Below are positions 3,104 through 56,842 of a stretch of 64,000 nt of DNA, piece by piece. A program made the position numbers and the translations under genes. Every line of letters starts with the position of its first letter. The first letter of the stretch is position 1. A model generated the notes under the pieces. That model was not told the origin of the DNA and did no database searches. It was given only the letters and a program-made list of their open reading frames with translations. This DNA comes from an uncultured bacterium (GTDB lineage: Bacteria > Oederibacteriota > PGYV01 > CAWJRG01): contig CAWJRG010000010.1 in NCBI GenBank assembly GCA_963845185.1, positions 96,001 to 160,000 on the forward strand. The letters are read 5' to 3'.

Positions 3104-4486
3104 CTATTTAAGCTTTTTTATCAATACCGCAGCTTGTGCCAGCTGGTTTTTGACTGATTTTGGGGAAGTCGAGCCTGATGTGGCTTTTGCATTCAGCGAC
3201 ACCGCAGGTTCCATGACTCCATATATGTCTTTTTCAAAAAGTTTTGAGAATTTTTTGAATTCATACAGGAACATGTCTGAAAACTGCCTTTTCCCGACCA
3301 GGCAAAAAGAAACTATATTCCCTGTTATTTCATGAGCCTGCCTGAAAGGCACGCCTTTTTTTACAAGGTAATCTGCTATGTCAACTGCGTACATAAAGGA
3401 ATCCTTTGCCTGCAGCATCATTTTTTCCTTTTTTAATTTTATATTTGCCAGCAATTTGCTAAAAATGTGCAGCGAGCTTTTTATTTCGTTTATACTTTTG
3501 AAAAGCAAGGGTTTGTCTTCCTGCATGTCTTTATTGTAGGCAAGCGGAAGTGCCTTTAGCATGGTCAGTGCAGCTATAAGGTTGCCGTAAAAAACGCCTG
3601 TCTTGCCCCTGATGAGCTCGGCTATATCCGGATTTTTCTTATGCGGCATTATAGAAGAGCCTGTGGCAAAAGCATCGTCAATTTCGATAAACCCGAACTC
3701 GCTTGAGTTGAAAATGATTATCTCCTCGCAAAAACGGGACAGGTGCATTGCTGCCAGGGACGCGAAATACAGGAAGTCAAGCAGGAAATCCCTGTCCGAA
3801 ACCGCGTCCATGCTGTTTTTTGAAATTTTTGCAAAGCCAAGCAGCCTTGCCGTATATTCCCTGTCGAGTTTATAGTTTACACCCGCGAGCGCGCCAGAAC
3901 CCAGCGGCATCGAGTCCGTCATTTTTTCCGTGAATTCGAGCATCTCATAATCCCTGGCGAACATAAAAAAATAGCTCATCAGCCACTGCGCAGCTGATAC
4001 AACCTGCGCATGCTGCATATGCGTGTAAGACGGCATCCAGATGCTCACGTTCTTCTTTGCCAATGCAACTATTGCAGATAAAACTTCCTTCAGGTTATTT
4101 TTTACAGCCTTTATTTCTTCTTTCAGATAAAGGCGAGTATCAGTCGCAACAAGGTCGTTCCTGCTCCTTGCCGTATGTATTTTTTTGCCAGTGTCTTTGG
4201 CAACCTTCACAAGCTCGCCTTCAACCGCTGAATGCACGTCCTCATATTTTGAAAAATCGATTTTTTTCTCGCTTTTCAGCACCTTTTTGAGTCCTGCGCT
4301 TATAATCGCCAGTTCTTTCGCACTTATGATCCCTGCTTTCGCCAGCGTCTTCGCATGCGCCATGCCTGTAAGTACGTCGTATTTAAAAAGGCACCTATCA
4401 AATGAAATGGAAGCGTTAAAAGCTTCCGCGTCTTTATCCATCTCTTTTTTAAACCTTCCTTGCCAGACTTTTTTGTCTTTAGGCAT
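3104..4486 (-). CDS. argH: Argininosuccinate lyase
   Basis: WQGRF, HTARSRND, TGSSIMPHKKNPD, YNKDMQEDK. Confidence 0.97.
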   Translation of the reverse strand: MPKDKKVWQGRFKKEMDKDAEAFNASISFDRCLFKYDVLTGMAHAKTLAKAGIISAKELAIISAGLKKVLKSEKKIDFSKYEDVHSAVEGELVKVAKDTGKKIHTARSRNDLVATDTRLYLKEEIKAVKNNLKEVLSAIVALAKKNVSIWMPSYTHMQHAQVVSAAQWLMSYFFMFARDYEMLEFTEKMTDSMPLGSGALAGVNYKLDREYTARLLGFAKISKNSMDAVSDRDFLLDFLYFASLAAMHLSRFCEEIIIFNSSEFGFIEIDDAFATGSSIMPHKKNPDIAELIRGKTGVFYGNLIAALTMLKALPLAYNKDMQEDKPLLFKSINEIKSSLHIFSKLLANIKLKKEKMMLQAKDSFMYAVDIADYLVKKGVPFRQAHEITGNIVSFCLVGKRQFSDMFLYEFKKFSKLFEKDIYGVMEPAVSLNAKATSGSTSPKSVKNQLAQAAVLIKKLK

Positions 4487-4496
4487 ATTGCACCGC

Positions 4497-5711
4497 CTAT
4501 TTTTTCTTTTTATTTTTTACCTGATTGTAAATTTTCATTTGCAGGCCGAAGAGATTGATGAAGCCCTCTGCGTCCTTTTGCGAATAAACCTTGTCATTTT
4601 CAAAAGTCGCGTAATCCTGGCTGTACATGGAAAAAGGCGAGCTTTTCCCCGCCGGGAAAACATTGCCCTTAAAAAGTTTCAGCTTTACATCGCCTGTAAC
4701 CATCTCCTGCGTCTTGTCGATAAAAGCCGACAGCGCCTCGCGCAAAGGCGAGTACCACATGCCGTTATAAATCAGTTCGCCGAATTTTAACGCGACCTGC
4801 TGTTTGTAGTGCCTTGTCTCGCGGTCAAGTACTATTTCCTCAAGCTCCCTGTGTGCCGTATACAATAAAGTGCCTCCCGGCGTCTCATAAACCCCGCGGG
4901 ACTTTATACCCACGAGCCTGTTTTCAACCATATCGGCATAACCTATGGCGTGCAAAGCCCCTGTTTTATTCAGCGCTGCCATTAAATCAATCGGTTTTAA
5001 TTTTTTGCCGTTTACTGCGAAAGGTATCCCTTCCTTAAAGCTTATTGTCACATATTCCTCGGTATCCGGCGCCTTTTTTATTGTGTTTATCTTGCTTAAG
5101 ATATCCTCGGGCGGCTCATTTGCCGGATCCTCGAGTATCCCGCCCTCATGAGAAATGTGCAAAAGATTATCGTCTTCCGAATAAGGCTTTTCTTTAGTGA
5201 CAGACACTTCAATATTATGCGCCTTCGCGTACTCTATTTCCTCTGTCCTGGATTTTATGTCCCACTCCCTCCATGGAGCGATAATTTTCAGGTCAGGCGC
5301 CAGCGCTTTATACGTTAATTCAAACCTAACCTGGTCATTGCCCTTGCCCGTAGCGCCATGGCAAACGGCGTCTGCTTTTTCTTTCCTAGCTATATCGACC
5401 TGCGCTTTTGCGATTAATGGCCTTGCTATGGACGTGCCCATAAGGTACTTGTCCTCATAAACGGCACCGGACTTTATCATCGGGTAAATGAAGTCCGTGA
5501 TAAATTCCTGCTTTACATCGGCTACGTACGCCTTGTCAGCGCCGCTTTTTAAAGCTTTTTCCTGCACTTTGTCAAAATCACCGGCCTGGCCAACGTCAAC
5601 CGCGCAGGCAATAACCTTGCATTTATAATTCTCCTTGAGCCACGGCACTATGACCGAGGTGTCAAGCCCGCCTGAATAGGCGAGAACAACCTTTTTTATG
5701 TTTTTATCCAT
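4497..5711 (-). CDS. argG: Argininosuccinate synthase
   Basis: [43 protein letters not shown]. Confidence 0.98.
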
Positions 5712-5723
5712 TTTTGTTCTCCT

Positions 5724-5825
5724 TAGAGTCCGTTGATTTTGCCGAGCGTCAACAGCGAAGGCAAAATTTTACGGAATCTTATACCCGCTCAAGTCCGAGG
5801 CCTTCAGGCCGAGGACAAGTGGTAC
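5724..5825. repeat. Composite hairpin repeat, copy 1 (long hairpin plus GTCC-GA..GA-GGAC hairpin)
   Basis: Homologous to 26654-26737, 48467-48566 and 54241-54339. Confidence 0.7.
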
Positions 5826-5860
5826 TATGTTATCATTTATTATTCAATCCAAAATTCTTA

Positions 5861-5895
5861 CACTTCGCACTCATCACTTAACACTTAACACGCAT
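5861..5895. repeat. Degenerate 7-bp tandem repeat array
   Basis: cacttcg cactcat cacttaa cacttaa cacgcat. Confidence 0.6.
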
Positions 5896-5898
5896 ATA

Positions 5899-6837
5899 TC
5901 ATCTGTTCATTAGCAATGCCAAAATTCCCTTTTGCGCATGCAGCCTGTTTTCCGCCTGATCAAAAACAACGGAATTCGGCCCATCCATGACTTCATCTGT
6001 GATTTCCTCGCCCCTGTGTGCAGGCAGGCAATGCATTATTATGCAGTCATGTTTTGCTTTTTTGATAAGAGACATATTTACCTGGTATTTTTCAAATTCC
6101 TTTTTCCTAGCTGTTGCTTCCCCTTCCATGCCCATACTTGCCCAGACATCAGTATATATAACATCTGCGTCTTTCACTGCCTCTTCGGCATTGTCGGTAA
6201 TTATTAATTTTACCTTGTTCTGTCCGGCTATTGCTTTTGCTTTTTCAACAACACTTTTATCCGGCATGTATTTTGCCGGAGACCCGACCATTAGGTTCAT
6301 TTCCATTTTTGGCGCGGCAAAAAGCCATGAATTGCACACGTTGTTGCCGTCGCCGACATACGCCACGGTCAAACCCTGTAAAATTTTCTTCTTGTCTTTT
6401 ATAGTCATAAGGTCTGATATTATCTGGCACGGATGCGAAAAATCCGTAAGCCCGTTAATAACCGGTACTGTGGCGTTTTCAGCCAGCGTTACGACTTCCT
6501 TATGCTCAAATGTCCTTATCATTATGCCATCCACATACCTAGACAGCACCTTTGCCGTATCTGATATTGTCTCTCCCCTGCCGAGTTGTAATTCGCCCGC
6601 GCCCATATAAAGCGCCGCGCCTCCAAGCTGGAACATGGCTATTTCAAAAGAAACCCTTGTACGTGTCGATGGTTTCCTAAAAATCATGGCAAGCGCCTTG
6701 CCGAGCAGCGGTACAAAAAGTTCCTTTTTCTTGTGTTTTGCCCTTATCATGTCCGCGACGTTCAAAATAAGCTCTATTTCCTCTTTTGTCAGGTCCTCTA
6801 TTGAAATTATATCCTTCTTGCTGAGTTTCGTAATCAT
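5899..6837 (-). CDS. argF: Ornithine carbamoyltransferase
   Basis: STRTR, HPCQ, YTDVWASMG, HCLP motifs. Start moved to the ATG at 6837, which follows GGAGG. Confidence 0.96.
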   Translation of the reverse strand: MITKLSKKDIISIEDLTKEEIELILNVADMIRAKHKKKELFVPLLGKALAMIFRKPSTRTRVSFEIAMFQLGGAALYMGAGELQLGRGETISDTAKVLSRYVDGIMIRTFEHKEVVTLAENATVPVINGLTDFSHPCQIISDLMTIKDKKKILQGLTVAYVGDGNNVCNSWLFAAPKMEMNLMVGSPAKYMPDKSVVEKAKAIAGQNKVKLIITDNAEEAVKDADVIYTDVWASMGMEGEATARKKEFEKYQVNMSLIKKAKHDCIIMHCLPAHRGEEITDEVMDGPNSVVFDQAENRLHAQKGILALLMNR

Positions 6838-9375: not shown

Positions 9376-9557
9376 AAAATCCCTGCTGTGCCCGTGTAGA
9401 AGCAAACGTTTTGGCCCAACACTTTTTTGAACGGGAGCTGGGCTTATATGTGGTGTGCATGCCTCATAACGAGGAAGCCTAAAACATATAACAAGGCACC
9501 CACCTGTTTGGAAAGGGCCCAAAATAATGCTTCCCACGGCACTTGGCGGGGTTATTT
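9376..9557 (+). ncRNA. ssrS: 6S RNA
   Basis: About 180-nt rod with pairing ends (CCCTGCTGTGCCCGTG / CACGGCACTTGGCGGGG), the GGGAGC and GGCACCCACCTG motifs typical of Bacillus-type 6S, and a position upstream of rny. Confidence 0.85.
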
Positions 9558-48920: not shown

Positions 48921-48937
48921 TTGGCACGGGGTTTGCT
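48921..48937 (+). promoter_or_regulatory. Sigma54 -24/-12 promoter
   Basis: TTGGCACGGGGTTTGCT (GG-N10-GC). Confidence 0.85.
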
Positions 48938-49022: not shown

Positions 49023-49802
49023 ATGAAAACCCAGAGAAATGTAATGAGCAAGGTAACAAGAACGTGTTTTGTGCTTGTGTTTTCGTTGTTTGTTGTTATT
49101 TCATTATTTGCTACACCTACGACAGTGGACTGGACCCCGTGTACAACTTCCATTGAACCTTTTTTAAAGGGTCATATTGACAATGACATGTATACGCGAG
49201 ACACAAGCGCGCTTCCTGTGGACTATGGGTTCCTGGTCGGCATACTGCCGTTTAGCATGGTTCAGGCAGAGATAGGCTATGACACGCTTCTGCCTGTTTT
49301 TTCACCGCAGACATTCAAAGACTCCAATTATTTTAATGGTAAAATCGGAACTCCGGAAAACAGTTTATTGCCAGTAGGTATTTCAGTCGGAATATTCAAT
49401 GTAGGCATCGACACAAATGTAACAAATTATAATGTCGTACATGCTGAAATAGGAAAAACATTTGATTATGTCGGCAACATTTGCGTCGGCGGATATACAG
49501 GCAACGACAAGCTTCTTATAAATGACAACGGCAAGGTTGACAATTCAGGTTTTATGGCAAGCTGGACATCGCCCCAATTTTCAAAATTCAATATTATCGC
49601 GGATTACATGAGCGGCAATAATGCGCTTTCAGCAGGAGGTGTGGCAGTAACGGCATATTTAGCCGATAACGTAGGTATTATAATCGGGCCGGTATTCCCT
49701 CTTTCAAAACAGTTTGCAGGCAATTCAAAAGTTCTAATGACGTTTCAGCTTGACGCGGATTTTGACCTGGTTCCGCCAGCGCCTGCGCCGGCAACAAAGT
49801 AA
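49023..49802 (+). CDS. Exported hypothetical protein, possibly an outer-membrane beta-barrel
   Basis: Signal peptide, alternating beta-strand pattern, first gene of the sigma54 operon. Confidence 0.6.
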   Translation: MKTQRNVMSKVTRTCFVLVFSLFVVISLFATPTTVDWTPCTTSIEPFLKGHIDNDMYTRDTSALPVDYGFLVGILPFSMVQAEIGYDTLLPVFSPQTFKDSNYFNGKIGTPENSLLPVGISVGIFNVGIDTNVTNYNVVHAEIGKTFDYVGNICVGGYTGNDKLLINDNGKVDNSGFMASWTSPQFSKFNIIADYMSGNNALSAGGVAVTAYLADNVGIIIGPVFPLSKQFAGNSKVLMTFQLDADFDLVPPAPAPATK

Positions 49803-51776: not shown

Positions 51777-52118
51777 ATGAAAAGAATAGAAGCGATAGTG
51801 AGGCCTGAAAAAACCGACGATGTAATAAACGCCCTGGATGATATCGGACATCCGGGCATGATGATAAGCGAAATCGAAGGTTACGGGAAACAGCATGGCA
51901 GAGAAGACAAAGTACTGGGCAAGAAATACCATGTGGACCTTATCACCAAAACCCGCATAGAGATAATAGTAAAAGACAGCGAAGTAAAAAAGATTGCAAA
52001 TGCCATACGGGATGCGTCGTTTACAGGCGGTATCGGCGACGGGAAAATCTTTATTTACCCCGTTGATGACGTCTTACGGGTAAGGACAGGAGAAAAAGGA
52101 GAAGCTGCTATTTACTAA
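51777..52118 (+). CDS. glnB: PII nitrogen regulatory protein (GlnB/GlnK family)
   Basis: AIVRPEK, GYGKQ, Tyr51, TGGIGDGKIF, RVRTGE. Confidence 0.85.
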   Translation: MKRIEAIVRPEKTDDVINALDDIGHPGMMISEIEGYGKQHGREDKVLGKKYHVDLITKTRIEIIVKDSEVKKIANAIRDASFTGGIGDGKIFIYPVDDVLRVRTGEKGEAAIY

Positions 52119-52151
52119 TAAATCTCTTTAATACAATTTACTTCAAAAAAT

Positions 52152-52236
52152 GAAAAGGTATCCTGCCCTTTTCGTTTTATCCGTCTCCAGCAGGTTTTTG
52201 ACCACGGGATGCGTCGGAAGCCGCATCCCGTTTTTT
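52152..52236 (+). ncRNA. Candidate 3'-UTR sRNA ending in an intrinsic terminator, copy 1
   Basis: Homolog of 54343-54430; core complementary to the amtB RBS; CGGGATGCG/CGCATCCCG followed by T6. Confidence 0.6.
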
Positions 52237-52278
52237 ACTTCTTTAATCGCTGTCTGGAGATTTATTCAGGCTTAAAAT

Positions 52279-52325
52279 TGATTATTTTTTAATCATTAAT
52301 AGTTTATTTGGCTATTTTTTGACCA
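52279..52325. promoter_or_regulatory. Putative enhancer dyads upstream of amtB
   Basis: TGATTA-TTTTT-TAATCA (52279) and TGGCTA-TTTTT-TGACCA (52309), 30 bp apart. Confidence 0.6.
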
Positions 52326-52397
52326 TATTTATGGGATCAAACTATTGCCAAATACGATTTCCCCTTTAAAACATTGTATTTTTAAAGCATATGCCGT

Positions 52398-52414
52398 TTG
52401 GCATGTCTATTGCT
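52398..52414 (+). promoter_or_regulatory. Sigma54 -24/-12 promoter of amtB-glnK
   Basis: TTGGCATGTCTATTGCT (GG-N10-GC). Confidence 0.82.
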
Positions 52415-52549
52415 CTGTAAGATTATGTATTTTATAAATTATAAAAATGAAAGGAGGCTTTTATACAGGCAAAGGAAAACTGCTTAAAATTGATTTTGAT
52501 ACTGTGCTTCCAAAAGCAAAATAAAACTATAGAAAGGAGACGGATTAAG

Positions 52550-53881
52550 ATGAAAAAATTATTATTATTGTTGGTTGTTTTTTCCGCAATGGCAGGCGTC
52601 CTGCTTGCCGACAATACCCCTGTTGCAGCTGCTGCTTCGCCTGTCCTGAAGGTTGATTCCGGCGACACAGCATGGGTGCTCATTTCTTCCGCGCTGGTGC
52701 TTCTCATGACAGCGCCGGGCCTTGCGCTCTTCTACGGCGGCCTCGTCCGCCGCAAAAACATGCTCAGCGTACTTATGCAGTGCATGATAATGCTCGGGCT
52801 CGTAAGCGTGCAGTGGGTAATCTACGGTTACTCGCTTGCTTTCCACCCGGGCAGTGGTTTCTGGGGCGGTTTTGGCTGGTCTTTTTTAAAGGGGGTGGGT
52901 TTTACGCCTAACGCCGATTATGCCCCTACAATTCCCCACCAGGCTTTCATGATATTCCAGGCAATGTTCGCTGTTATCACCCCCGCGCTTATTATAGGCG
53001 CTTTCGCGGAAAGGATGAAGTTTTCCGCGTTTTTGCTTTTCAGCCTTGTATGGGCCACTTTTGTTTATGACCCTGTCGCTCACTGGGTATGGGGAACCGG
53101 CGGCTGGCTGAAAAACCTCGGCACGCTTGATTTTGCCGGCGGCACTGTGGTGCATATAAATGCCGGCATAGCCGCACTTGCTTCCGCGCTTGTGATAGGC
53201 AGGAGAAAATATTATGACAATAAACCCACTCCACCGCATAACATGGCGTTTTCGGTAACCGGCGCCGCGCTTTTGTGGTTCGGTTGGTTCGGCTTTAACG
53301 CAGGCAGCGCCCTGCAGGCAAACGGGCTCGCGACCAGCGCCTTTGTCGTGACAAACACTGCCACGGCAATGGCTGCGCTGACATGGGCGTTTCTCGATAA
53401 AATTTTCAACGGCAAATCCACTGTGCTCGGCACAATATCCGGCGCTGTCGCAGGGCTTGTCGCAATAACCCCCGCGTCCGGTTTCGTCGATGTCCTGGGC
53501 GCGCTTGCAATAGGAATACTTGTAAGTATATTCTGCTTTTCTGCGGTAAGCTTCCTCAAGCCGAAATTAGGCTATGATGATGCGCTTGACGCTTTCGGTG
53601 TGCACTGTGTAGGCGGCGTGGTTGGCGCTCTGGCAACCGGCTTATTCGCGACTATAGTGATCAATCCGGCAGGCGCAAACGGCCTCTTCTACGGCAACCC
53701 GAAACAATTTTTAATACAGCTTGCTGCCGTGGGCGTAACGCTCGTGTATTCTTTTGTCGGGACAATCGTTATATTAAAACTTATAGATGTGACGATTGGC
53801 ATCAGGGCCGGCGAAAAAGAAGAAGTCATAGGACTTGATTTGACCCAGCACCATGAAAATGCCTATACTCTGATAGAATAA
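52550..53881 (+). CDS. amtB: Ammonium transporter
   Basis: GDTAW, PGLALFYGG, DFAGGTVVH, WFGWFGFN, DDALDAFGVH. ATG at 52550 follows AGGAG. Confidence 0.97.
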   Translation: MKKLLLLLVVFSAMAGVLLADNTPVAAAASPVLKVDSGDTAWVLISSALVLLMTAPGLALFYGGLVRRKNMLSVLMQCMIMLGLVSVQWVIYGYSLAFHPGSGFWGGFGWSFLKGVGFTPNADYAPTIPHQAFMIFQAMFAVITPALIIGAFAERMKFSAFLLFSLVWATFVYDPVAHWVWGTGGWLKNLGTLDFAGGTVVHINAGIAALASALVIGRRKYYDNKPTPPHNMAFSVTGAALLWFGWFGFNAGSALQANGLATSAFVVTNTATAMAALTWAFLDKIFNGKSTVLGTISGAVAGLVAITPASGFVDVLGALAIGILVSIFCFSAVSFLKPKLGYDDALDAFGVHCVGGVVGALATGLFATIVINPAGANGLFYGNPKQFLIQLAAVGVTLVYSFVGTIVILKLIDVTIGIRAGEKEEVIGLDLTQHHENAYTLIE

Positions 53882-53898
53882 AGAAAGGAGCTGACAAC

Positions 53899-54240
53899 AT
53901 GAAACTAATAATCGCGATAATCCAGCCGAGCAGGCTGGAAGAAGTTAAACAGGAACTCTACAAGGCGGAAGTAAACCTGCTGTCTGTAAATGAAGTCCTT
54001 GGCCACGGCAGGCAAAAAGGCATAACCGAGGTTTACAGGGGCATAAAAGAATCAGGCAACCTGCTGCATAAAATACGGCTCGAGATAGCCGTGAACGACA
54101 ATTTTGTCGAGCCGACCGTGAAAGCGATAATGAAAGGCGCGCAGACAGGAGAAACAGGCGACGGCAAGATTTTCGTTCTGCCGCTTGAAGATTGCATAAG
54201 GATAAGGACAGGAGAAAAAGGAAAAGTAGCTATAGGCTAA
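53899..54240 (+). CDS. glnK: PII protein GlnK
   Basis: GHGRQKG..YRG, TGETGDGKIFV, RIRTGE; adjacent to amtB. Confidence 0.9.
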   Translation: MKLIIAIIQPSRLEEVKQELYKAEVNLLSVNEVLGHGRQKGITEVYRGIKESGNLLHKIRLEIAVNDNFVEPTVKAIMKGAQTGETGDGKIFVLPLEDCIRIRTGEKGKVAIG

Positions 54241-54339
54241 TTCTGCTGTTTTCCAGACGAACCCATCAGGGTGAGTCCTGGAATTACAGCGAATTGTACC
54301 CTATCAAGTCCGAGACCTTAAGTCGAGGACAAGTGGTAT
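54241..54339. repeat. Composite hairpin repeat, copy 4
   Basis: GCTGT..GAC-GA-ACCC..GGGT-GA-GTC..ACAGC hairpin plus TACC..GTCC-GA-GAC-CTTAA-GTC-GA-GGAC..GGTA. Confidence 0.7.
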
Positions 54340-54342
54340 TAC

Positions 54343-54430
54343 CGGAAAGGCTTCCTGCCCTTTTCGTTTTATACGTCTCCGCAGGAATTGACCACAGGAT
54401 GCGGCGCAAGCCGCATCCTGCTTTTTATTT
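54343..54430 (+). ncRNA. Candidate 3'-UTR sRNA ending in an intrinsic terminator, copy 2
   Basis: Homolog of 52152-52236 with a compensatory stem change; CAGGATGCGG/CCGCATCCTG followed by a T tract. Confidence 0.6.
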
Positions 54431-54508: not shown

Positions 54509-56842
54509 TTATTTGACTTCCTTCTCTATCCGGTTATATAGATTCATCAGCTTTGGCTCATTGCCGAAAGCAGCCATGCCGGTCTTAAGCACGGCCATGG
54601 CCTTGTCCTTCTGTTTCAGCTTATAGTAGGTATCCGCGATATACGCGTCTATCTCAGCGCTGTCGCCCGCTTCTTTTGTTTTTTGAAAATATTCCAGTGC
54701 TTCCTCAAAGTCTTCTTTTTTATAATCATACATTCCTATTTTCTTATAAATATCTGCCGTCCTGTAACGGCATTCAAGCAGGAAATCAAACAAATCCATT
54801 GCCCTTATGTATTTGCCGGTATCCAACAATGCGCCTGCCTGTTTGAACATTTCCCAGTATTGCGCCTGTGCATCCGCGTTTCCGATATTATCTGTATATT
54901 GCTGCAGGCTGGCTTTATTCGGGCTGCCGAATTTTATCGCATTTTCAAGCATTTTTTTTGCTATGATCCGCAGATTGTTGTGAAGGTATATCATCCCCAA
55001 GTTTTCGTATGCCACCCAGAGATTTCCCTCTTCCTTTATGATTTTTATCAGGTATTTCATTTGATTGTCTTCGTCGTTGAGCGCTTTGTAAGCAAGAGAC
55101 AAATCGTAATATATATCCGCCCTGTAGCGGTTCTCCGGGAAAAGCAAAGAATACTCAAGGCACCTTATTCCCTGCATATATTTTTTCTGGTTAAGGCACA
55201 CAATTGCCTGCTTTGCAAGTTTCTTGCTGTAGTTTGAAATTATGACCCTGTCGTAGGGGTTGTTCACCTCGAATATGCCGCGGTATGAGTATTCCCTGAA
55301 AATATAATCGGGCATTGCCCCGTTTTCCGGCATGATTTTATATAGCAAGCCCTTTCCCATAAAATTGCATTTCACAGGATAGCTCGCCAAATACATGGAG
55401 TCGTCGTGCGCAAAATAAAGATTTTTGTTGCCGCAGTATTTGTTGATTATATTGCTTATGTTCATTGGCATATTGTCCGGATCCAGACTGATCTGGCCGT
55501 ATTTATCAATAAAATCTTTAATGCCCCATTTGTTTTTGAGGTTATGCAGCATAAAAACATCAATATTATTCGCCTTGTGTTCTATCATCCGCTCGTAGCT
55601 GATGGGCATAACAAAATCACCCTCGGCTATATAAAAGCTGTGCGGCTCCAGGGTCATAAGCGCGTTGTTCCCGAAATCATAAGTAATATAATTATATCTG
55701 TTGTAGTTTGCCCTGAAATGCCCGGCCCCCGAATACAATATTGCCACTGCAAGAACAATTGCAAAAAAATATCCGTATATTCTCTTATCAAGGATATTCA
55801 TGGTATGGAATATTCCCGCCAGGATAAAAATAAAAAGGATATATTGCGATGGGATCAGGAAATTTTTCATTACCCAGATACTGTCTGAATTGGTTTTGTT
55901 GAAAAAAACAACCATAAACACCGTGATAAAAAAAGCACTTAAGTAAAAAACCGGGATTTTCCTGTTTTTCCTGAATAAAATATAACCGCCGATAAATGCC
56001 AGGACCCATAAAAACGAGAAATCATCTAAAAAAAGCCTTAAAAATTCTTTTGCCTGGTCCGCAAAGAGCTGCAATGAAAGCGTCTCATCGTTGTTGTATA
56101 TGTTTCTTAATATGGTCCACCAAAAACTTTCCCACGTGTTTGCCTTTGCCATGAAAATAAAAACCCCGTCCTGACTGGACCTTATGGGCAGGTAAATATA
56201 TGGGCTTACCCCTATCGCAAACAACAATAACAACCAGGCCGTATTTTTGCGGTTGATTTTTCCCCTGTATCTGTAGAAAAAATATCCGAATACCGGCAGT
56301 AATATTATCATGCTCGGCCAGTGGTTGGCAAGCGAAAGTCCGTAAATAAAGGCCATCATGTAAAGGTGCTTAATGCTGAATTTCTCGAAAAGCCGCGTGC
56401 CCATAAATATCATTATCGCGAAAAACAAGAGATTAAGTATGTATATGCCGCCTTTTGCGTCTATTGCCTGGTTCCAGAAAACATATGAAAAGGCAAGGAT
56501 AAAAACCCCTGAATAACCTGCTGTTTTATTCCCAAATCCGAAAAAATTATTTGCAATTTGCCCGGCAATAAAATAAGAGAGCAATAAAACCAGCATGGCC
56601 AGGAACACGGAAAACGAGCTGACCCTGAATGCAGGCGAGCCCACAGGCAGTAAAGAAAATACCTTGCCAGCGAGCGAAAAAAGCGGATAGCCGGGCGGGT
56701 GATTTATTCCAAGGGTATAAGCGGACGTTGAAATTTCCGGCGAATCGTCGCTTTTAAACGCAGGAGACATTGTATAAAGATAAACCTGGGATATGGCAAG
56801 CAGGCATATTAACAATATTGTATAGTTTACATATTTTTTCAT
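54509..56842 (-). CDS. DUF2723 (TMEM260-like) membrane glycosyltransferase with C-terminal TPRs (paralog of 12163..14466)
   Basis: DDSPEI..TLGINHPPGYPLF, LANH, YLPIRS, EGD, TPR helices. Confidence 0.82.
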   Translation of the reverse strand: MKKYVNYTILLICLLAISQVYLYTMSPAFKSDDSPEISTSAYTLGINHPPGYPLFSLAGKVFSLLPVGSPAFRVSSFSVFLAMLVLLLSYFIAGQIANNFFGFGNKTAGYSGVFILAFSYVFWNQAIDAKGGIYILNLLFFAIMIFMGTRLFEKFSIKHLYMMAFIYGLSLANHWPSMIILLPVFGYFFYRYRGKINRKNTAWLLLLFAIGVSPYIYLPIRSSQDGVFIFMAKANTWESFWWTILRNIYNNDETLSLQLFADQAKEFLRLFLDDFSFLWVLAFIGGYILFRKNRKIPVFYLSAFFITVFMVVFFNKTNSDSIWVMKNFLIPSQYILFIFILAGIFHTMNILDKRIYGYFFAIVLAVAILYSGAGHFRANYNRYNYITYDFGNNALMTLEPHSFYIAEGDFVMPISYERMIEHKANNIDVFMLHNLKNKWGIKDFIDKYGQISLDPDNMPMNISNIINKYCGNKNLYFAHDDSMYLASYPVKCNFMGKGLLYKIMPENGAMPDYIFREYSYRGIFEVNNPYDRVIISNYSKKLAKQAIVCLNQKKYMQGIRCLEYSLLFPENRYRADIYYDLSLAYKALNDEDNQMKYLIKIIKEEGNLWVAYENLGMIYLHNNLRIIAKKMLENAIKFGSPNKASLQQYTDNIGNADAQAQYWEMFKQAGALLDTGKYIRAMDLFDFLLECRYRTADIYKKIGMYDYKKEDFEEALEYFQKTKEAGDSAEIDAYIADTYYKLKQKDKAMAVLKTGMAAFGNEPKLMNLYNRIEKEVK

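Follow-up and report, generated by a model that had tools for sequence, protein, structure and literature searches.

A candidate 3'UTR-borne base-pairing RNA behind two PII genes of an uncultured Oederibacteriota bacterium, with amtB start sites as predicted targets

The ammonium transporter AmtB is controlled by transcription, through NtrC/sigma-54 and similar regulators, and by plugging of its channel by GlnK. Here we describe a duplicated element of about 85 nucleotides (nt) in a 64,000-nt stretch of DNA from an uncultured bacterium of the Oederibacteriota (assembly GCA_963845185.1, contig CAWJRG010000010.1, positions 96,001 to 160,000; hereafter the window). The window contains two co-oriented nitrogen operons, each closed by one copy of the element, and the core of the element is complementary to the start sites of the only two amtB genes in the genome. 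We read it as a new base-pairing RNA, borne in the 3' untranslated region (3'UTR), which would repress the translation of amtB; judged from the sequence, we give this reading a probability of about 0.6.

Several RNAs of comparable origin have been described. GlnZ is a small RNA (sRNA) derived from the glnA 3'UTR in Enterobacteriaceae (PMC9731577; bioRxiv 10.1101/2022.04.01.486790). As reported, it resembles the present element in lying at the 3' end of an mRNA induced under nitrogen limitation (NtrC/sigma-54), in sharing the terminator of its parent gene and in pairing with other mRNAs of nitrogen and carbon metabolism, base pairing being likewise proposed here. They differ in the parent gene, which is glnA for GlnZ and PII/glnK here, and in the target, which is given as sucA for GlnZ (PMC9731577) and would be the amtB starts here. 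Besides, the lineages are unrelated, there is no Rfam or sequence match between the two RNAs, and the present genome contains two copies and no Hfq gene that could be found. Another likeness is s-SodF, processed from the sodF 3'UTR in Streptomyces, where the 3'UTR RNA of one isoform gene reportedly acts on the mRNA of a functionally equivalent gene (PMC3919588). That system concerns superoxide dismutases, nickel and inverse regulation, whereas the three operons considered here are apparently co-induced from sigma-54-type promoters. s-SodF reportedly pairs with the 5' end of its target.

NarS, a narK 3'UTR-derived sRNA reported under a title that speaks of “mRNA crossregulation”, comes from a transporter operon and reportedly cross-regulates the mRNA of a transporter of the same pathway (PMC7038943). 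It differs in being enterobacterial, associated with Hfq and RNase E and concerned with nitrate and nitrite, and has no sequence relation to the element. An antisense RNA of Clostridium acetobutylicum glnA, said to have been described by Fierro-Monti, Reid and Woods in 1992, is reportedly short, encoded just downstream of a nitrogen-assimilation gene and complementary to a ribosome-binding region. Unlike the element here, it is said to run in the opposite orientation and to target the adjacent glnA. A literature search, with most subscription journals outside it, found no RNA from a glnK/PII 3'UTR and none targeting the amtB ribosome-binding site or blocking amtB translation, and a 2022 review of sRNAs derived from 3' ends does not mention amtB, glnK or ammonium. 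In Pseudomonas stutzeri only an Hfq peak from enhanced crosslinking and immunoprecipitation (eCLIP) is reported on the amtB 5'UTR.

The element and its complementarity to two amtB start sites

Two homologs of about 85 nt that end two sigma-54 nitrogen operons were described in an original prediction made on this DNA, and both were recovered, positions and letters alike (Table 1). The copies share about 85% of their letters over some 85 nt, and their 27-nt cores differ at one of 27 positions. The PII proteins that precede them are only 39% identical (44 of 112 residues), and the spacers from stop codon to element (31 nt for one copy, about 100 nt for the other) and the flanks are not alignable. 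Because the core is far more conserved than the PII genes and the spacers, the element appears to be a discrete block under its own constraint and not the tail of a recent gene duplication.

To count its copies, we searched the 23-nt core (CCCTTTTCGTTTTAT(C/A)CGTCTCC, which includes the seed stretch CCGUCUCC) with at most 3 mismatches, and found 2 sites in the window against none in 100 shuffles. It turned out that the 27-nt core with the same tolerance has 2 sites in the whole 3.5-Mb genome (reversed control, 0), and blastn gave no further convincing copy in this genome. A covariance model was built from the four known copies, two of this genome and two of a close relative (L042, see below), and searched in 99 genomes of the phylum. 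It scored the own two copies at E of about 1e-19 and found nothing beyond them, the best match in the 98 other genomes having an E of 0.0013. A sequence found twice in 3.5 Mb, each time after a PII gene of a sigma-54 operon, is not a high-copy generic repeat such as a repetitive extragenic palindrome, in agreement with what had been predicted. The prediction had placed it behind “both free PII genes”, which is correct for the two in the window; the genome has four free PII genes and one fused PII domain, and the element is present only behind those two. The copy number is established on these grounds.

The anatomy of the element is equally established, in that three helices can be formed in all four known copies. 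These are P1 (8-10 base pairs (bp), AUGAAAAGG with CCUUUUCGU), P2 (5-7 bp, CCUGC with GCAGG), which encloses a 21-23-nt loop, and a terminator stem of 9-11 bp with a U tract after it; the linker UGACCAC between P2 and the terminator is invariant. The compensatory change noted earlier at the base of the terminator stem (CGGG/CCCG vs CAGG/CCTG) was reproduced, and the second copy of the relative adds a third version, CCGG/CCGG. The P2 loop opens with the 3' arm of P1, and the two helices could represent either an H-type pseudoknot or alternative folds, the pseudoknot or switch suggested in the original prediction. In the second copy of the relative no linker nucleotide lies between the P1 and P2 arms, so that simultaneous formation of both helices is doubtful there.

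Both copies are co-oriented with the upstream gene and have the terminator at the end, as in L042 and in the sister family described below, and promoter calling gave no convincing sigma-70-like promoter just ahead of either element. Downstream of copy 2 there is no gene on the same strand, the next gene being convergent (54509-56842, minus strand). The element is not a riboswitch or attenuator, since copy 2 faces this convergent gene and copy 1 is cut off from amtB1 by a sigma-54-type promoter. The latter promoter had also been predicted and was matched at 52399 with 1 mismatch.

The original prediction recognized no known family, and in Rfam 15 no family reaches its gathering threshold in the region or in the loci of relatives. 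The best sub-threshold matches are antisense_SR1 (26.9 bits, threshold 45; on the minus strand and carried by the terminator) and BjrC1505 (23.4 bits, threshold 50). As in known 3'UTR-derived sRNAs, the element lies downstream of a gene, co-oriented with it and ending in that gene's own intrinsic terminator, and it has a conserved seed complementary to a target start with genome-scale specificity. It is not a GlnZ, since the elements follow PII genes and not glnA, and the glnA-amtB2-glnK operon of this genome has plain terminators only, without the element. Hfq-dependence as in GlnZ does not apply either, no Hfq gene having been found. The element would thus belong with the base-pairing sRNAs on mRNA 3' ends, a familiar kind; unusual here are the two copies on separate operons, the turnover of the seed between families and the apparently Hfq-less host.

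The core of copy 1 (52169-52188) pairs with the start region of amtB1, the ammonium transporter gene of the window (52536-52556). The duplex has 20 pairs (18 Watson-Crick, 2 G-U) with one bulged U and an energy of -27.7 kcal/mol; its first 10 pairs are contiguous Watson-Crick and it spans the Shine-Dalgarno sequence and the AUG, exactly as predicted. Copy 2 and amtB1 form 18 pairs with an internal loop (-22.8 kcal/mol), the weakest of the four element-amtB pairs. A stronger partner lies outside the window on the same genome's contig C10, namely amtB2, a second ammonium transporter gene (438 aa, Pfam E 1.1e-128) in a glnA-amtB2-PII (glnK) operon 112 kb upstream of the window locus. Its start region (C10:36322-36345, AGGAGGCGGATAAGATGAAAAGGA) forms 22 contiguous pairs with copy 1 (19 Watson-Crick, 3 G-U), covering the Shine-Dalgarno sequence, the AUG and 7 nt beyond, with -36.0 kcal/mol for the 23-nt core and -37.3 kcal/mol for a longer query.

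For specificity, we ran the 23-nt core as a duplex query over both strands of the genome (about 41,000 seeded sites). Barring self-antisense, the top match for both copies is the amtB2 start (-36.0 and -29.3 kcal/mol), and amtB1 is 10th in the copy-1 list, which includes two self-antisense matches. When the same core was ranked against 2841 crude Shine-Dalgarno-bearing start regions, copy 1 put amtB2 first (-36.0 kcal/mol) and amtB1 second (-26.4 kcal/mol), so that its top two start regions are the only two amtB genes of the genome, and copy 2 put amtB2 first (-29.3 kcal/mol) and amtB1 ninth (-21.6 kcal/mol). The other high-scoring start regions have no nitrogen link. For 50 shuffled cores the best energy among these starts averaged -27.2 kcal/mol (sd 1.7, minimum -31.2); none reached -36.0 and 9 reached -29.3. 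Cofolding, which includes the cost of unfolding, gave gains of -21.2, -15.5, -13.2 and -11.0 kcal/mol for the four element-amtB pairs and of -2.7 to -9.8 kcal/mol for four further start regions of the locus. These results establish the complementarity and its specificity across the genome. The prediction that amtB would top such a ranking holds in that amtB starts lead it, while the strongest is a paralog that the prediction had not seen and the energy of amtB1 is unremarkable.

The operon of amtB2 has several features of its own. A sigma-54-type promoter (TGGCATACCGATTGC, L041 about 4486-4500) precedes glnA-amtB2, and a gene for a sigma-54 activator with GAF, AAA+ and HTH domains (L041 2121-4247) adjoins this promoter divergently. 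The leader of 260 nt between the promoter and glnA (L041 about 4486-4757) holds a 28-codon open reading frame (ORF) with a strong Shine-Dalgarno sequence, GGAGGTGAAAAATG. The glutamine synthetase N-terminal and catalytic domains lie in two frames (L041 4758-6202; ORFs 4758-5135 and 5381-6202), which suggests a one-base frameshift near 5095 or else an error of the assembly. In the glnA-amtB2 spacer (L041 6203-6335, C10:36203-36335) there are a terminator and two more GC hairpins and no obvious promoter. GGTCAA occurs twice in this spacer and is complementary to UUGACC of the element linker, a possible second contact site.

Related elements and their seeds

A homologue was found by an exact-pattern scan of metagenome contigs, which gave four loci. 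Only L042 is a true homologue, syntenic and with an amtB 91% identical to that of the window; the other three (L043-L045) have an unrelated terminator after another gene. Two further searches yielded nothing of the kind: blastn of copy 1 against 24 genomes of the class gave short matches only, which proved coding or unrelated on inspection, and a pattern scan of GTDB genome contigs gave one match inside a coding region of an unrelated metagenome-assembled genome, taken as chance.

L042 carries both copies. Its copy 1 is nearly identical to that of the window, with an identical amtB1 start region, and has in front of it a strong GC hairpin which might be a terminator in its own right. Copy 2 of L042 is diverged, and yet P1, P2 and the terminator are kept through changed letters, with P1 formed by AUGAAAGGCG and CGCCUUUCAU and the terminator base by CCGG/CCGG. 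The changed core, CGCCUUUCAUCUUAUCCGCCUC, is an 18-bp all-Watson-Crick complement of an amtB2-type start (GAGGCGGAUAAGAUGAAA), and the three G-U positions of the amtB2 pairing have become Watson-Crick, a match which assumes that the amtB2 of the L042 organism resembles that of the present genome. If it is matched to the diverged copy 2, the amtB2 start of that organism should read GAGGCGGAUAAGAUGAAAGG(CG). Contigs of the single DNA run, compared with the amtB2 start region, leave 6270-6437 uncovered.

To compare more distant relatives, we gathered amtB-glnK loci from 24 genomes of the class. In a sister family of the same order (f10), five genomes have a non-alignable element after the orthologous glnK. 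In four of them (G016, G017, G018 and G023) it is a hairpin, CUCAC[UUCC(C)UCCCCGA(A/U)A...]GUGAG, followed by the terminator and located immediately behind the stop codon of the glnK downstream of the orthologous (A-clade) amtB; in the fifth (G019), UCCUCCCCG lies inside the terminator loop. The amtB starts of these genomes carry an unusual extended motif, (U)UUCGGGGAGGAA, complementary to their own elements over 9-14 nt. For instance, ...CCCCGAU of G023 faces AUCGGGG, and ...CCCCGAAA of G017 and G018 faces UUUCGGGG. The design recurs with a swapped seed in the sister family, and this recurrence is established.

The longest Watson-Crick run between the glnK 3'UTR and an amtB start of the same genome is 14 nt in G017, 13 in G018, 12 in G016, 10 in G023 and 9 in G019, and 10 nt in the present genome. 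Among 5910 non-cognate cross-family pairs, runs of at least 10 nt occur 38 times and runs of at least 12 nt twice. This measure replaced a phylum-wide matrix of cognate and non-cognate duplex energies, because GC-rich terminators and starts swamp the energies. In that matrix the own copies come out on top (z -5.1 and -3.8) and the sister family reaches z of about -1.3 to -1.7. Masking bases paired in the minimum free energy fold before matching was not useful, because that fold pairs part of the loops. RNAalifold misaligned an indel among the four hairpins, and the CUCAC/GUGAG stem is invariant, which gives no covariation either way.

The 11-mer TCGGGGAGGAA has three sites in G018, namely two amtB starts and the antisense of the element. 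It has three sites in G016 and six in G017, and all of those at gene starts belong to amtB. In G023 it also occurs at the start of a gene for a 497-aa PtsI-like protein (L081, G023:C34:7867); this phosphotransferase enzyme I gene may be another target of the f10 element. Within the element-bearing operon of G016 and of G023, amtB is without the motif, which is carried solely by the amtB of the other operon. Action in trans would be required in these two genomes, because the complementary start lies in the other amtB operon. In G022, no B-type amtB was found with the query used, and no such element.

Together with copy 2 of L042, the sister family agrees with the earlier expectation that seed and ribosome-binding site would change together in related genomes. 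For the elements of the present family (f1) and of f10, both common descent with turnover of the seed and convergence are possible, the elements being unalignable and amtB2 not an orthologue of the f10 target paralog. Besides, f10 relatives (L066-L070) have, about 350 nt upstream of amtB-B, a conserved structured leader between a glutamine synthetase gene (ending ...PTYADLLFKL) and amtB-B. It consists of a long perfect hairpin, then CCCTTCTACTTCGACGCCGAC...GGCCCCGGGGTGCCGACGCCCCGGGGCCGCTAA, then ...AGCAGAAGGTCCAGAGCGCCCTGTCGGAAGGGC, has no Rfam match at gathering threshold and is a candidate for an unknown leader RNA.

Hairpins with C-rich loops after glnK are common in the phylum, and a demonstrable match to amtB is confined to f1, part of f10 and one genome of f17. 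In f9 (L057, L058, L071, L072) a conserved hairpin with the C/U-rich loop AAGCUUCUCCUGCUUCACUGCC follows both glnK genes, and its loop has only a generic anti-Shine-Dalgarno match of about 7 nt to the amtB starts. In f17, a family of another class (L102, L103, L111, L112; five copies in four genomes), a conserved glnK-3'UTR hairpin precedes the terminator. It has covarying stems (GGGCGUGC/GCAUGCCC vs CCGGGAUGA/UCAUCCCGG), a near-invariant loop, UGGACCCCCAU, and no Rfam match. G049 is the only genome in which this loop matches a called amtB start (10 nt); all other genomic sites of its complement lie outside gene starts. Another kind of sequence was seen directly after the glnK stop codon of G002 (L073), a long tandem array of units of about 12 nt (GAAAACTGAAAG-like).

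Proposed mechanism and its rivals

In the proposed mechanism, permease-PII and amtB1-glnK are two sigma-54 nitrogen operons whose 3' ends are formed by the element. From there an RNA of about 85 nt would arise, cut out of the 3'UTR or begun at a start of its own. Such an RNA would have two parts, the short P2 stem (5-7 bp) presenting the 21-23-nt loop and the Rho-independent terminator. The loop would pair across the Shine-Dalgarno sequence and AUG of both amtB mRNAs, most strongly with amtB2 and more weakly with amtB1; on amtB2 it would act in trans, because that operon is 112 kb away. The covered Shine-Dalgarno sequence and start codon would block binding of the 30S subunit and lower AmtB synthesis, and repression is the expected effect because a duplex spanning the Shine-Dalgarno sequence, the AUG and the first codons leaves hardly any outcome but exclusion of the 30S subunit. 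Since all three operons have sigma-54-type promoters, the repressor would be made together with its targets, and the nitrogen-limitation signal that induces amtB would also make its repressor. The outcome would be an incoherent feed-forward or negative-feedback brake on ammonium uptake, running parallel to the plugging of AmtB by GlnK. We infer the accumulation of the RNA, the position of its 5' end, repression instead of activation and the physiological logic. As for the translational feedback proposed in the original prediction, everything computable came out as expected, with the transcript and the repression still a matter of inference.

Several results weigh against this reading. Compared with shuffles, the element as a whole is more stably folded (z -4.6 and -4.8), and the 5' domain alone is not (z -0.8 and -1.2), so that the fold signal comes from the terminator; four copies of the f1 element from two organisms are too few for covariation statistics. 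The pairing with amtB1 is not exceptional on its own, since 33 of 50 shuffled C/U-rich cores reach its -26.4 kcal/mol, and copy 2 puts amtB1 at only 9 of 2841. Since the amtB1 and amtB2 start regions are paralogous and similar, their first and second places are not two independent events. The remarkable points are the identity of the matched genes and how strongly amtB2 pairs. When the full 52-nt 5' part is used as query, amtB1 falls to about 2385 of 27,166 seeded sites, a scan which is uninformative because long imperfect duplexes dominate it, and the 23-nt core was used instead. No excess of cognate element-amtB matches was seen in families f3, f5, f7 and f9. As to the sister family, its elements cannot be aligned with those of f1, and in the amtB tree amtB2 groups with the A clade and not with the f10 target clade. 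Finally, Hfq (PF17209) has no match at E 0.01 or better in this genome, which is 99.4% complete, while 5 of 14 control genomes have one.

Among the rivals, the one that survives best, though we hold it unlikely, is an action in cis only, in which the 3'UTR would fold back on the amtB1 start of the same or a read-through transcript and tune the AmtB:GlnK ratio or the stability of the mRNA, with no separate sRNA. Copy 2 does share a predicted transcript with amtB1, copy 1 precedes the amtB1 start by 360 nt on the same strand, and in G017 and G018 the complementary motif is present at the amtB of the element-bearing operon, too. The best partner is nevertheless amtB2, in another operon 112 kb away. 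The sole strictly cis pair, copy 2 with amtB1, is the weakest of the four (-22.8 kcal/mol; rank 9 of 2841), a strong terminator and a promoter separate copy 1 from amtB1, and in G016 and G023 the motif is missing from the same-operon amtB and found only in that of the other operon.

Next comes the view that the hairpin serves the stability of the glnK 3'UTR or binds a protein, and that its C/U-rich loop resembles an anti-Shine-Dalgarno sequence, the amtB match being a by-product. We regard this as improbable. It fits the f17 hairpin, with its covarying stems, invariant loop and amtB match in G049 only, and the f9 loop with its generic match, and shuffled C/U-rich cores do reach about -27 kcal/mol somewhere among start regions. 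It does not explain why the f1 match is 22 bp long and takes in the spacer, the AUG and the first codons, why the f10 match reaches upstream of the Shine-Dalgarno sequence (UUUCGGGG), why amtB starts rank 1 and 2 of 2841, or why, in G016 to G018, the 11-mer is practically restricted to amtB starts.

We see little chance that the element is a decaying, functionless relic, an inverted duplicate of the amtB 5' end that came to lie beside a terminator and was copied once more. The minus strand of the core does read as a degenerate amtB start (GGAGACGGATAAAACGAAAAGG, ACG for ATG), and amtB2 opens with the same 9 nt as the 5' arm of P1, ATGAAAAGG. The core is however far better conserved than the neighbouring coding sequence and flanks, both between the copies and between the two organisms; the changes in copy 2 of L042 improve the Watson-Crick pairing and keep all helices; and a non-alignable analogue stands at the same position in f10. 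That the element encodes a small protein is very improbable, for although three of the four copies open with ATG in one frame (40 codons in copy 1, 22 in L042 copy 2), copy 2 lacks a start codon (CCGGAAAGG), a Shine-Dalgarno sequence is absent from all four, the frames cross the terminator hairpin and the peptide of L042 copy 2 is unrelated.

If the reading of a 3'UTR-borne RNA repressing amtB is right, the glnK transcript would give two brakes, a protein that plugs existing channels and an RNA tail that stops new ones. It would also be a clean target prediction from sequence alone in an uncultured lineage, with two families whose non-alignable seeds each fit their own amtB start, and, with Hfq apparently absent, one may ask how RNAs of this type work in these bacteria. 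A wider idea, which we offer only tentatively and hold to be possible but well short of likely, is that hairpin RNAs in glnK/PII 3'UTRs form a lineage-wide, chaperone-independent module. Its architecture would be fixed (a short stem, a loop of about 20 nt and a terminator behind an amtB-linked glnK), and its loop would be rewritten to track the ribosome-binding site of an amtB paralog of the genome. Were this true, amtB paralogs would communicate through mRNA 3' ends, and the f9 and f17 hairpins would be further members.

Genes and promoters of the locus

The features of the two operons and of the element are collected in Table 1. The rpoN gene was found in the genome, and TGGCA-N6-TTGC sites equivalent to the promoter at 52399 precede the orthologous amtB in L042, L048, L049 and L053.

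Table 1. Positions of the element copies, operon genes and promoters in the window.
Feature	Positions	Strand	Basis
Operon 1 sigma-54-type promoter TGGCACGGGGTTTGC	48922..48936	+	exact TGGCAC-N5-TTGC, 0 mismatches; pattern match only
Operon 1 gene 1, 259 aa, without Pfam family	49023..49802	+	
APC amino-acid permease with C-terminal PII fusion, 632 aa	49863..51761	+	Pfam AA_permease_2 residues 55-480, P-II 520-626
Free PII gene 1, closes operon 1	51777..52118	+	Pfam P-II, E 1.4e-28
Element copy 1	52150..52237	+	letters, terminator, fold, duplex
Copy 1 P1	52150-52158 with 52167-52175	+	
Copy 1 P2	52162-52166 with 52190-52194	+	
Copy 1 anti-start-site core	52166-52188	+	
Copy 1 invariant linker TTGACCAC	52198-52205	+	
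Copy 1 terminator stem, then U tract	52204-52231	+	
Sigma-54-type promoter TGGCATGTCTATTGC of the amtB1-glnK operon	52399..52413	+	1 mismatch to pattern
amtB1 ribosome-binding site and AUG GGAGACGGATTAAGATGAAAA, in-window target	52536..52556	+	duplex with both element copies
amtB1 ammonium transporter, 443 aa	52550..53881	+	Pfam Ammonium_transp, E 1.6e-128
Free PII gene 2 (glnK-like), 3' of amtB1	53899..54240	+	Pfam P-II, E 3.8e-27
Element copy 2	54343..54430	+	letters, terminator, fold, duplex
Copy 2 P1	54343-54350 with 54359-54366	+	
Copy 2 P2	54352-54358 with 54381-54387	+	
Copy 2 core	54358-54380	+	
Copy 2 terminator stem, then U tract	54395-54420	+	

The permease-PII fusion of operon 1 is also found in L042 and in G017 and G018. 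Besides, a 6S RNA is located in the window at 9377-9556 (111 bits).

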